From: Oscillospiraceae bacterium | Lineage (GTDB): Bacteria > Bacillota > Clostridia > Oscillospirales > UBA929 | Assembly (NCBI GenBank): GCA_009777475.1 | Contig: WRLU01000007.1 | Location: 6,532 to 70,531, forward strand | Reading direction: 5' to 3' | Length of the DNA stretch: 64,000 bases | Shown: one piece after another, positions 20,452 to 25,369 of the stretch | Numbering within the stretch: position 1 is the first letter of the stretch | How the letters are laid out: every line of letters starts with the position of its first letter | Position numbers and translations under genes: made by a program | Notes under the pieces: model-generated | Told to the model about the DNA's origin: nothing | The model's database searches: none | The model's input: the letters and a program-made list of their open reading frames with translations, nothing else

Positions 20452-20526
20452 TGGGCTGTCGCCAAGCGGTAAGGCACCAGACTTTGACTCTGGCATTCGT
20501 AGGTTCAAATCCTGCCAGCCCAGCCA
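20452..20526 (+). tRNA. tRNA-Gln (anticodon UUG)
   Basis: Acceptor TGGGCTG/CAGCCCA, anticodon loop CUUUGAC, T-loop GGTTCAAATCC and CCA. Confidence 0.95.
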
Positions 20527-21371: not shown

Positions 21372-21625
21372 CTAAATAAGCAAGAGAGCCTTTCGGCTCT
21401 CCTGTAAGGTTGGCATTTGGCAGGCGTAGCATTCTCCTGCGTCTCTCGGGTTGCCCCTGTCAATACCAGCGGCGTGTGGTCGCTACGAAATCCACCACCT
21501 CAAACACCCAACCTTATTGTTCGACAGGATAAAGGGTTGTCGGCAGGGCCGGCTGTTCCTGCATCACTTTTGGCCGCTGGGGCGCGTGGATGCCGTTGTC
21601 CACCCCAACAACCCATTACCATCAT
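21372..21625 (-). ncRNA. Candidate structured RNA 'A' (~250 nt), family unassigned
   Basis: Begins just downstream of a near-consensus promoter and ends at GAGAGCC-GAAA-GGCTCTC plus TTGCTTATTT. It contains several perfect 7-9-bp long-range complementarities and no credible ORF. Confidence 0.5.
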
Positions 21626-21631
21626 ACGCAC

Positions 21632-21660
21632 ATTATAACACGCTTATTCTTTTTTGTAAA
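21632..21660 (-). promoter_or_regulatory. Promoter A (TTTACA-N17-TGT-TATAAT)
   Basis: Minus strand TTTACAAAAAAGAATAAGCGTGTTATAAT. It is identical at 23 of 29 positions to promoter B. Confidence 0.65.
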
Positions 21661-21827
21661 TAACTTTGTGAGTTAAAATATACCGTTGCAACCGAGGCTC
21701 CTTCATTTCCCACATGGTTATGATTGAGTTTTTCTTTTCTGCTGTTTCTGTACTCAATCTCAAAACGATTTCTGCTACATTGCTGTATCGCTTTATGACA
21801 CCCAGGCGGGGACCTGGACGCTGAGGG

Positions 21828-22868
21828 TCAAAAAAGGCGGTGCGGCACCCATACTCTCCTACGAATGGTCGAAGGCCAGCGGCAAGGGACCCGATGGCAG
21901 CTGGCTGCATCGGCTCGACCCAGCAATTCTCGCTCAATCCGCTTTTTATTGCTGAGTTCAATGGCATCACGGATGGCTTCTTGCTGTGTGTCTATTTTGC
22001 GAAAGATGGCATCGAGTTTTTTATCATCATCATCTTCCTGTTGGTTTTTCCATACTTTAGAGAGAAGCTCATAGAGTTCTTGACCATCCGGGAAGTCGTT
22101 ATATCCCAACAGCATATCGTCCCAAAGGCGAGGGGTGCTTATGGCGGCAACATATTCTGCTTCAGTGCTGTTTTGGTTTAAGTGAGCAAATGCGTAGTGC
22201 ATCACTTGGCGGTCTAAATTCATGCGTACACTCGCAGAGATTGCTCCAACGTTATACAAAAGTTGGGCTGCCTCCAGCATTTCTTGGGGCGAGGAAAACT
22301 TCAACCCACCTAAAATTTCTTTCTGTTGCGCTTCAGGGGAGAGTCCGGCTAAACCGTATTTCTCAGCATAGAACAATGCAGCGATGGGACTCATATAAGT
22401 GTTATCCCGTAGCCCTTGAATCTCTGTCGGCGTGAGAAAAGCATATGATTGGGGATTCGCCTCGTATTCTTCAACGGTCGCTGACTTATGAAAACCAGGG
22501 ATTCCTGCCTCGGCCAATTCGTTACGAAACTCTGATGTTATTTCCGCATATTTTAGCCTTGTAGATGCTGCCTCTGCTGAAAAACCAAGGTCGGGTATAT
22601 TGTTTTTTGTTTCAAAGTCATCCCCATGAAGCGTGGCGTATTTGGTATAAATTTCAGCATATTTATCCAGCCACATCAGCGTTTCAGCATCCAACTCGGA
22701 TCGCACCTCAGCGATGCGGTCAGCAGCAGACGGAACGGCGGTTGCGATAGTTTGCGATTTCTGCAGTTGTGCCAAGATTTTTGTGAAGCCATCACCGGCA
22801 ATGCCTGATGTTTTTGACGACTGTAAATTGTTCACAGAAGGCGTAGTAGTCAAGCCTGATATGTTCAA
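21828..22868 (-). CDS. Hypothetical protein (347 aa from TTG 22868, or 362 aa from ATG 22916)
   Basis: Long ORF with protein-like composition. TTG at 22868 (MNISGLTTTPS...) lies 6 nt after GAGGAGGA, whereas ATG 22916 has no RBS. I recognise no family. Confidence 0.6.
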   Translation of the reverse strand: MNISGLTTTPSVNNLQSSKTSGIAGDGFTKILAQLQKSQTIATAVPSAADRIAEVRSELDAETLMWLDKYAEIYTKYATLHGDDFETKNNIPDLGFSAEAASTRLKYAEITSEFRNELAEAGIPGFHKSATVEEYEANPQSYAFLTPTEIQGLRDNTYMSPIAALFYAEKYGLAGLSPEAQQKEILGGLKFSSPQEMLEAAQLLYNVGAISASVRMNLDRQVMHYAFAHLNQNSTEAEYVAAISTPRLWDDMLLGYNDFPDGQELYELLSKVWKNQQEDDDDKKLDAIFRKIDTQQEAIRDAIELSNKKRIERELLGRADAASCHRVPCRWPSTIRRRVWVPHRLF

Positions 22869-22957
22869 ATTGCTTCCTCCTCGTATAAAGCTATATTTTC
22901 TGCGAAAAATTTTCATGCTTTTCGCAATGTATACATCGACCGAAACCCCATATGTCT

Positions 22958-23124
22958 TTAGGGAAAAAGGGCTGCGGTTATATTTGGAATACCGCAGCCC
23001 TTTTGTTTGGTTTTAGCCGATGAAGAGGTTTTGGCACTTTGGCGAGTGTACCCCTTCCCGCATTTCTTTTGACCCGAAGGGTGCGTAGCAGCACAATCTC
23101 TACTTCAAAGCACCAACCCATTGT
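22958..23124 (-). promoter_or_regulatory. Leader RNA 'B' with an intrinsic terminator (attenuator or riboswitch-like)
   Basis: Runs from promoter B to the AAAAGGGCTGCGGT / ACCGCAGCCCTTTT stem (22965-23004) plus a U-tract, about 50-100 nt ahead of the orphan ORF. Confidence 0.5.
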
Positions 23125-23130
23125 ACGTTG

Positions 23131-23159
23131 ATTATAACATACTTATTCCCATATGTAAA
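23131..23159 (-). promoter_or_regulatory. Promoter B (TTTACA-N17-TGT-TATAAT)
   Basis: Minus strand TTTACATATGGGAATAAGTATGTTATAAT. Confidence 0.65.
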
Positions 23160-23400
23160 GGGCTTTATTTTTGCCCTCCAGCCTTTTTAAGTTCCGCCCT
23201 CGGATTCGATAGAATGTCATAACGGAATTTTTCAAGCCCTTTTGGTTTGCCCCTTGCAGTATCAGGGCTTGTCCATTTTTCACGGAACCAGTTTTTTGCA
23301 AATTGAACGTCCAAAAATGGGCAAAATTTCTACTATTCCGGCAAGAAAAAGCGGCACAAGGCAAAGAGCTTACGGAGAACATCGACAAATCCGTGGGAGC

Positions 23401-25264: not shown

Positions 25265-25369
25265 AGATAATCCTCCTTTTACAGTTGCGTTTAATTTGGC
25301 ATTCACCAGATGACGGTCGCGGAAAAATGCATGCTTTGCCACAAGTTAAAGCACTAGCGATAAACCACT

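Follow-up and report, generated by a model that had tools for sequence, protein, structure and literature searches.

Skipping-rope RNAs beside remnants of predicted phage nuclease genes in an Oscillospiraceae genome segment

We analysed a 64-kilobase (kb) stretch of contig WRLU01000007.1 from an Oscillospiraceae bacterium (hereafter the window), in which a preliminary description had pointed out two similar minus-strand promoters, each followed by a structured RNA. The element is almost certainly an already catalogued one and consists of three copies of the small skipping-rope RNA (Rfam family RF02924), which are arranged in two separately promoted and terminated units. Three different subtypes of this RNA are present inside 1.7 kb, with a nuclease gene stub beside each unit, and this is the main notable point of the window. 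In viral loci, genes for one clade of predicted phage ribonucleases, which carry the PBECR2 domain, are almost without exception accompanied by skipping-rope RNA.

Skipping-rope RNAs in the window

The whole window was scanned with the Rfam covariance models at the gathering threshold, which is 36.7 bits for RF02924. The matches obtained were three transfer RNAs (tRNAs) and three copies of the skipping-rope RNA on the minus strand. Copy B (core 23113-23034) reached 50.4 bits (E = 5e-9), copy A1 (core 21613-21535) 47.1 bits (E = 5e-8) and copy A2 (core 21508-21412) 39.2 bits (E = 1e-5), slightly above the gathering score, with all E-values referring to the 64-kb window. These values bear out the proposed presence of structured RNAs. 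The statement of the preliminary description that no known RNA family fitted is superseded by RF02924 matches for all three copies, and the new RNA class considered there does not survive three matches at gathering level. Unit B contains a promoter, one skipping-rope RNA and a terminator, and unit A a promoter, two tandem RNAs and a terminator. The features are as follows, given in the direction of transcription, with lengths in nucleotides (nt) and P1 to P4 denoting the helices of the RNA:

23143 to 23268, minus strand: remnant B, the decayed C-terminal 35-40 codons (approximately) and stop codon of a PBECR2-type nuclease gene, ending in GLKNSVMTFYRIRGRNLKRLEGKNKALYIWE and the stop
23131 to 23159, minus strand: promoter B, TTTACA, 17-nt spacer and TATAAT (11/12 positions) with a TG extension; predicted start near 23124
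23026 to 23119, minus strand: skipping-rope RNA B, the Rfam core with flanking bases that lengthen P1; 80-nt subtype; the long P1 is also seen in the fold
22964 to 23000, minus strand: terminator B, GGGCTGCGGT, a 12-nt loop and ACCGCAGCCC, then TTTTT; read from the sequence
21644 to 21796, minus strand: remnant A, the C-terminal 50 codons and stop codon of a PBECR2/PBECR3-type nuclease gene, IKRYSNVAEIVLRLSTETAEKKNSIITMWEMKEPRLQRYILTHKVIYKKE and the stop
21632 to 21660, minus strand: promoter A, TTTACA, 17-nt spacer and TATAAT (11/12 positions) with a TG extension; predicted start near 21625
21528 to 21620, minus strand: skipping-rope RNA A1, the Rfam core with extended P1; the four-helix junction is reproduced by the minimum free energy (MFE) fold
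21406 to 21515, minus strand: skipping-rope RNA A2, 96-99-nt "long" subtype; the junction is seen in the MFE fold
21374 to 21404, minus strand: terminator A, CAGGAGAGCC-GAAA-GGCTCTCTTG, then CTTATTT; hairpin at 21404-21381 followed by a T-run, from the terminator scan

Unit A had been regarded as the structure of a single transcript, but both Rfam and the fold resolve it into two complete tandem RNAs. The suggestion of a pair of paralogous small RNAs was correct insofar as one RNA family is present in units that each have a promoter and a terminator, although there are three copies and not two. Both units indeed end in intrinsic terminators made up of a hairpin and a T-run (21404-21374 in unit A and 23000-22964 in unit B), the second of which was missed by the terminator scanner because of its 12-nt loop.

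The three copies have different relatives. RNA B is 87.5% identical over 72 nt to the copies of the viral loci L036, L112 and L119, and the nearest relative of RNA A1 is the RNA located behind the intact PBECR2 gene of locus L315. Compared to the latter, A1 shows changes from GAGG to GGGG and from GAGAUG to GUGAUG, affecting two junction positions that are conserved in the family. RNA A2 agrees nearly base for base with the consensus of the long subtype, as represented by L175. The 96-99-nt subtype differs from the 80-84-nt forms by a GNRA-capped hairpin added in the A-rich 3' bulge of P3. Because the long-subtype consensus is matched, we attribute the low Rfam score of A2 to this subtype insertion rather than to decay.

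The helices given by Rfam were found paired in 94-97% of the alignment cells with changes on both sides in 13/23 and 15/23 pairs, and none of 500 shuffles was as good; the alignments used for this covariation count were fitted to the model, and the MFE folds of A1 and A2 yield the junction independently of them. The segment AATGGGTTG follows the promoter in both units and was correctly placed near the start of both transcripts. Together with the 3' elements of the form GCCAAA..GCCAA..CC, which are also present as described, it provides the two strands of extended P1 helices. The proposed back-pairing of the 3' element to the 5' AATGGGTTG does not apply to unit A, where the two strands belong to different copies and each RNA has its own P1. 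Moreover, 63 of 67 distinct sequences have a P2 loop that can pair with the P4 loop over 6-7 nt, and at least 15 different sequence pairs are involved. This pairing is UGUGCU/GGUACA in B, CGUAGCG/UGCUACG with 7 base pairs (bp) in A2 and just CGGC/GCCG (4 bp) in A1. The resulting loop-loop pseudoknot is absent from the Rfam secondary-structure line and may already be contained in the published figure of the family.

PBECR2 nuclease genes upstream of the RNA

To identify further copies, viral contigs were scanned by a loose DNA pattern, which produced many chance matches, only about 40% of them being confirmed by a covariance model built from the window copies B and A1 with the Rfam structure. 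The model confirmed 47 skipping-rope copies in 43 viral loci, and the neighbouring open reading frames (ORFs) were then clustered. In 28 of 44 loci (the 43 viral ones and the window), a PBECR2-domain gene on the same strand ends 23-144 nt upstream of the RNA. The upstream genes of the viral loci score 43-50 bits with PBECR2 (PF18810) against a cutoff of 27.1, the proteins of L008 and L005 being among them. The domain represents either the C-terminus or, in some loci, the whole protein of 125-136 amino acids (aa), and one large lineage carries it as a fusion to a MuF head-morphogenesis domain.

The coupling was also tested in reverse, using 80 viral loci selected by PBECR2 protein similarity alone (43-100% identity). 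Skipping-rope RNA was present in 79 of them, and in 78 the first RNA begins about 30-50 nt past the nuclease stop codon on the same strand, as one to three tandem copies. In the 79th locus, L166, about 2.3 kb separate the nuclease gene from the RNA downstream, and the sole locus lacking the RNA ends 88 nt past the gene. In the clade nearest to remnant A, the RNA follows 28-30 nt past the stop codon in all five complete loci. In the related locus L315, a GNAT gene and smc enclose an intact nuclease gene of 121 aa with the same promoter, a single RNA almost identical to A1 and a terminator. The proteins belong to the BECR-fold nucleases PBECR2 and PBECR3 (PF18810/PF18812, PMC5512222), of which the window remnants are homologous to the C-terminal part only, whereas the same family precedes the RNA in related loci as stand-alone or MuF-fused proteins. 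No mention of an adjacent RNA beside PBECR2/PBECR3 proteins was found in the literature searched, and a search for named cultured phages with the module returned only one weak, unannotated record.

Some loci show further arrangements. Three tandem RNAs representing subtypes of 84, 91 and 97 nt are located behind one nuclease gene in L131 and L132 (3432-3741) and in L263 (7613-7946). The subtype of the first copy seems to follow the nuclease clade. RNA copies are also present behind portal/MuF-like genes with C-termini not matching the PBECR2 profile (L102, L098), behind a Pfam-less protein of 166-179 aa in a head-tail block (L072-L074/L104 types) and in an element with FtsK-like and Rep-like genes (L010).

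Profiles of the RNA-adjacent PBECR2 domains, including a broader one of 47 sequences, were searched against the six-frame translation of the window. Remnant A (21796-21647) was matched at E = 2.2e-8, or 4.9e-9 with the 47-sequence profile, only profile positions 83-134 being covered, and it matched the PBECR2 gene of L005 by tblastx with E = 2e-10. The C-termini of P0011 and P0013 agree with remnant A at 70% and, by eye on the alignment, about 90% of positions. P0011 is the protein of L315, carries the NCBI name "PBECR2 nuclease fold domain-containing protein" and passes the cutoffs of both PBECR2 (30.2 bits) and PBECR3 (36.5 bits). The stop codon of remnant A is located 30 nt ahead of RNA A1, a spacing as observed in the phages. 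Remnant B (frame ending at 23146) was the second-best of 1154 segments with E = 0.0048 over profile positions 100-131; its match is gapless up to the stop codon, and its register to the RNA is that of intact genes. Neither remnant was called by Pfam PF18810, even at E up to 10, and the gathering cutoff was not reached; a homology search by word index, for which the 50-aa remnant is too short a query, gave no matches. Because the N-terminal helix with the catalytic His is missing (no QxxHIxxRH motif occurs upstream in frame of either remnant), the remnants cannot be active nucleases, and the profile search in six frames detected no intact PBECR2 elsewhere in the window. We refer to the RNAs of the window as orphans because both nuclease genes are reduced to the C-terminal 35-50 codons. 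As a side observation, several of the C-terminal fragments (remnants A and B and those of L209, L276, L226 and L269) start near profile positions 83-102 and another group starts near positions 45-56, which may point to breakpoints being preferred, as when toxin C-termini are exchanged by recombination.

Bacterial genomes were searched with a strict core pattern, yielding 120 loci, mostly from Clostridia; all 100 loci tested with the model were true copies. Within 900 nt upstream of these RNAs, we found a full PBECR2 domain in 43 cases (about 40%), only a C-terminal fragment in 8, another partial match in 7 and none in 50 (about 45%), while 13 were too near to the end of the locus. The combination of a C-terminal nuclease fragment and the RNA as in the window therefore occurs in 8 of 108 assessable loci (at least 7%). 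One of them, L276, matches unit A in that two RNAs stand behind a fragment whose profile match begins at position 85, and one metagenome-assembled genome (MAG) contains both an intact and a truncated nuclease-RNA module. No neighbour of the genomic RNAs recurs except the stand-alone nuclease, which has a length of about 133 aa. Because the nuclease is mostly of this stand-alone type in genomes, gene and RNA look like a two-part module among housekeeping genes.

The promoters of the window are closely connected with the nuclease gene ends. As described before, they are near-identical (23 of 29 positions, counted on the sequence), and they are the two top-scoring sigma-70-type matches between 20200 and 24200. 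Their similarity is partly one of coding sequence: the common TTTACA and GAATAAG motifs are the final codons and stop of the homologous PBECR2 remnants and represent the conserved nuclease C-terminus. The -35 box and spacer of promoter A overlie the codons I-Y-K-K-E-stop of remnant A (which ends in VIYKKE), and the -35 box of promoter B overlies the final codons L-Y-I-W-E-stop of remnant B (ending in ALYIWE). The TATAAT box is located at a constant distance in the 30-nt non-coding spacer past the stop codon. The same promoter-over-stop-codon geometry is present in the phage loci L005, L034, L039, L097, L008 and L055. In the bacterial genomes, a promoter-like element with up to one mismatch per hexamer precedes 49 of 58 RNAs with an upstream PBECR2 match (84%), mostly 16-20 nt ahead of P1, compared to 21 of 50 RNAs without such a match and 56 of 2400 random windows (2%). 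The corresponding spacings in the window are 17 and 18 nt. We found no terminator between the nuclease stop codon and the RNA, indicating that the RNA is also made as the 3' part of the nuclease messenger RNA (mRNA), in addition to being transcribed from its own promoter. Judging by its sequence, this internal promoter is probably active.

Considering the truncated genes, the window copies may be non-functional debris of two decayed phage-derived modules on which selection has ceased. This is compatible with any function of the family and most plausible for A1, whose two altered family-conserved positions and loop-loop helix of only 4 bp fit such a fate, as do the truncation of both nuclease genes in a window without any intact PBECR2 and the A2 score close to the gathering value. 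Nevertheless, we consider it possible but on the whole unlikely for the window, since both promoters still match at 11/12 positions with the TG extension even though the coding remnant of unit B has become nearly unrecognisable (E = 0.005), B and A2 retain P1 and a pseudoknot of 6-7 bp, the low score of A2 derives from its subtype insertion and both terminators are intact.

Gene neighbourhood of the two units

The units are preceded by glmS (25342-23453) and genes for an aminotransferase, an AsnC-type regulator, CheW, CheA and flagellin. They are followed by a 47-aa ORF, an XRE (HTH_26) regulator gene, tRNA-Gln and tRNA-His on the other strand and a gene for a zf-HC2 anti-sigma factor. The ORFs between and directly behind the units are the following:

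21828-22916, minus strand: orphan ORF of 346-362 aa between the two RNA units
21309-21166, minus strand: 47-aa ORF with its own strong terminator at 21150-21114
21059-20742, minus strand: small XRE (HTH_26) regulator with its own strong terminator at 20705-20677

The orphan ORF has no match in Pfam, PHROG or PADLOC. An identical hypothetical protein is recorded for an Oscillospiraceae MAG, and only ten homologues were found when 5.8 billion proteins were searched. Skipping-rope RNA is absent from four loci that contain a homologue; in one of them, L002, the orphan gene adjoins the same pair of genes for an anti-sigma factor and an extracytoplasmic function (ECF) sigma factor, without the RNA units, the XRE gene or the tRNAs. 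We conclude from these RNA-less homologues that the ORF is resident and that the RNA units were added on either side of it, and the layout of L002 indicates that material has been inserted or lost at the locus of the window, at which no integrase or att repeats were found. The tRNA pair may, as proposed in the preliminary description, have served as a landing site for accessory DNA. The last 30 or so residues of the orphan ORF (GRADAASCHRVPCRWPSTIRRRVWVPHRLF) lie outside the homology of its family, which ends near 21900, so the gene probably acquired a different 3' end where the inserted RNA unit joins it. The absence of a family match, the small number of homologues and the four RNA-less loci led us to reject this ORF as a partner of the RNA. 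Likewise, the 47-aa ORF and the XRE gene were rejected as parts of the module because neither had a match in any of the RNA-bearing loci fetched.

Since each unit is terminator-ended and precedes a same-strand ORF (the 362-aa orphan for unit B, the 47-aa ORF and XRE gene for unit A), it had been proposed that the units are riboswitch or attenuator leaders of these ORFs, maybe of a new class. We regard this as very improbable. The RNA belongs to a known family, is followed directly by its terminator and has no recurring gene family downstream of it in either the 44 viral and window loci or the 120 genomic loci (164 in total), and this variability of the downstream genes deprives a leader function of support. 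Moreover, homologues of the 362-aa ORF occur on four other contigs without such an RNA. According to the original description, the family is rarely found in 5' untranslated regions (UTRs), making it an improbable riboswitch, and does not self-cleave in vitro (PMC5737381).

Some minor features of the region were also recorded. The likely start of the XRE gene is the ATG at about 20991, past the ribosome-binding site GAAGGGAG. Many Firmicutes contain a glmS ribozyme; here, glmS starts 27 nt past the preceding aminotransferase gene (25343-25369), and no glmS ribozyme was detected. A sub-threshold match to the Rfam family "Plastid-ycf2 5'UTR" at 20452-20524 on the minus strand (30 bits against a gathering score of 65.7) is antisense to tRNA-Gln and almost certainly an artefact of tRNA symmetry.

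Orphan copies and the possible role of the RNA

Skipping-rope RNA was described in 2017 as having a 3' Rho-independent terminator and being compellingly associated with a protein encoded nearby; as far as the text available to us extends, its describers offer no functional hypothesis (Weinberg et al. 2017, PMC5737381). In the literature searched, we found no later paper assigning a function to it. The copies of the window correspond to this family, which is known from Firmicutes and phages with a protein gene nearby, in sequence, four-helix structure, 3' terminator and clustering of copies. There is no essential difference, except that the nuclease genes are only C-terminal stubs and that A2 is of a longer subtype scored poorly by Rfam. 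The DUF3800-I and drum RNA motifs of the same study (PMC5737381) appear to be unrelated in sequence and structure and have other partner proteins.

Because the genomic copies were found by a core pattern that includes neither P1 nor the pseudoknot, these two elements could be compared between RNAs with and without an upstream nuclease. Those with a nuclease keep 7.95 of 8 pairs of P1 on average and a pseudoknot of at least 6 bp in 39 of 41 cases, and those without keep 7.8 of 8 pairs and the pseudoknot in 41 of 44 cases, formed by 19 different helices. As the RNAs lacking a nuclease maintain their helices, by way of compensatory changes, as well as the linked ones, the RNA appears to have a value without a nuclease in cis.

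We tentatively suggest that skipping-rope RNA is a trans-acting partner of the nuclease, most likely neutralising it as an RNA antitoxin or immunity factor, a role that the sequence data make plausible without bringing it to an even chance. According to this proposal, the nuclease mRNA would read on through the RNA, the internal promoter would supply additional free RNA, and the compact four-helix RNA, locked by its loop-loop pseudoknot, would bind the nuclease and keep it inactive. Orphan copies may then guard the cell against related phage-delivered nucleases, which are often MuF head-protein fusions, or may alternatively be leftovers once the toxin half of the module was lost. The explanation taken as a whole, comprising the identity of the RNAs as well as the mechanism, falls only a little short of an even chance.

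Neutralisation is proposed for several reasons. As a rule, the gene of a polymorphic MuF toxin is directly followed by a small immunity ORF (PMC5576092), a position taken by the RNA in the present case. The layout appears set up to provide RNA in excess over protein, and nuclease and RNA form a compact two-part module among housekeeping genes. A C-terminal toxin fragment with a downstream element also resembles orphan toxin-immunity modules. Finally, the structural neighbours of the nuclease are all toxins: its AlphaFold2 (AF2) model has a predicted local distance difference test (pLDDT) score of 95.3, and the only neighbours in the PDB, all of them weak, are RelE, YoeB, ParE and HigB. No solved structure of a relative was found by sequence, and no PDB match by fold at E ≤ 1e-3. 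Because the fold matches are only weak ones of the RelE/YoeB type, the target of the nuclease cannot be derived from them.

Among known systems, type III toxin-antitoxin modules (ToxIN, CptIN, TenpIN, AbiF) share a small ribonuclease-type gene beside a structured, terminator-ended RNA that is sometimes present in tandem, carriage by phages, prophages and chromosomes, and an expected excess of RNA over protein. However, their antitoxin is an upstream array of repeats of about 35 nt separated from the toxin gene by a terminator, whereas skipping-rope RNA is an 80-100-nt four-way junction with a pseudoknot that lies downstream, has its own promoter and is not separated by a terminator; the PBECR2 protein fold is also BECR/RelE-like rather than ToxN-like. 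The orphan modules of toxin C-termini and immunity genes known from contact-dependent inhibition (CDI), Rhs and MuF systems (PMC5576092) are similar in retaining a C-terminal toxin fragment with the element following it and in placing several different units side by side. They differ in keeping an immunity protein, where the window keeps an RNA with a putative immunity role.

Several points weigh against neutralisation by the RNA. Toxicity, RNA binding and inhibition by RNA are predictions from sequence for the PBECR2 clade, and PBECR domains have been predicted to be injected effectors against host or CRISPR RNAs, which would not require an immunity factor (PMC5512222). The gene order is unlike that of type III systems, with the RNA downstream and equipped with its own promoter, and the nuclease gene, which may be a different one from the protein gene mentioned by the describers of the RNA, is almost only found upstream of the RNA on the same strand. 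The sample of orphans was selected by the strict core pattern and is hence biased towards intact cores, and recent orphaning could also explain their conserved helices. At least copy A1, with its altered junction bases and weakened pseudoknot, may be decaying. Moreover, linkage alone is equally suited to a role of the RNA as cofactor or substrate.

In the latter case, the RNA would be required by the nuclease as a subunit, activator or scaffold of a ribonucleoprotein, or it would be a substrate for processing. The tight nuclease-RNA linkage fits this as well, and the many highly conserved unpaired bases and the pseudoknot are in agreement with it; in the original description, such features are read as indicating a "sophisticated biochemical function" (PMC5737381). 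Orphans would then be useful only if another part of the genome codes for a nuclease, and the MAG with both an intact and a truncated module illustrates that they could serve one in trans. Still, about 45% of the genomic copies have kept their structure without a nuclease within 900 nt, and the variable parts of the RNA are all paired, leaving no variable single-stranded segment as a possible guide. A strong promoter of the constitutive type and an excess of RNA would also suit an inhibitor better than a stoichiometric subunit. We therefore regard a cofactor or substrate role as rather unlikely.

Since transcription past the nuclease stop codon meets no terminator ahead of the RNA, the mRNA must include the RNA, which might then act in cis as a 3' UTR element on the stability, termination or translation of the nuclease mRNA. 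The conserved promoter of the RNA and the frequent, structurally maintained copies without a nuclease make this quite improbable. In addition, the complementarity of the RNA to the initiation region of the cognate nuclease gene (8.27 nt) is no greater than that to non-cognate ones (8.19 nt), which also led us to reject antisense control of nuclease translation.

A more specific form of neutralisation is suggested by the shape of the RNA. Its layout of P1, 2 nt, P2, 1 nt, P3, 4 nt, P4 and 0 nt, together with the contact of loops 2 and 4, mirrors the tRNA cloverleaf and its D-loop/T-loop elbow. The likeness is one of topology only and serves as a lead only: the skipping-rope copies were not called as tRNAs by ARAGORN or, at E up to 1, by the Rfam tRNA model. 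If the RNA is an immunity factor or antitoxin against PBECR2-type ribonucleases, its tRNA-like layout might let it act as a decoy, and bacteria might collect promoter-bearing orphan copies of different subtypes as a defence against nucleases injected by phages, an idea that we consider speculative and on present evidence doubtful.

For the window, the result is a correction, in that the supposed new class of riboswitch had already been catalogued. For the family, whose function has been open since 2017, the coupling to PBECR2 provides a testable two-component hypothesis, consisting of a nuclease and an RNA that neutralises it. The end of the nuclease gene doubles as part of a separate promoter for skipping-rope RNA, and the RNA persists in structurally intact form where the nuclease has been lost. 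If the immunity or decoy reading is true, orphan copies such as those of the window would represent the RNA counterpart of orphan immunity-gene islands.

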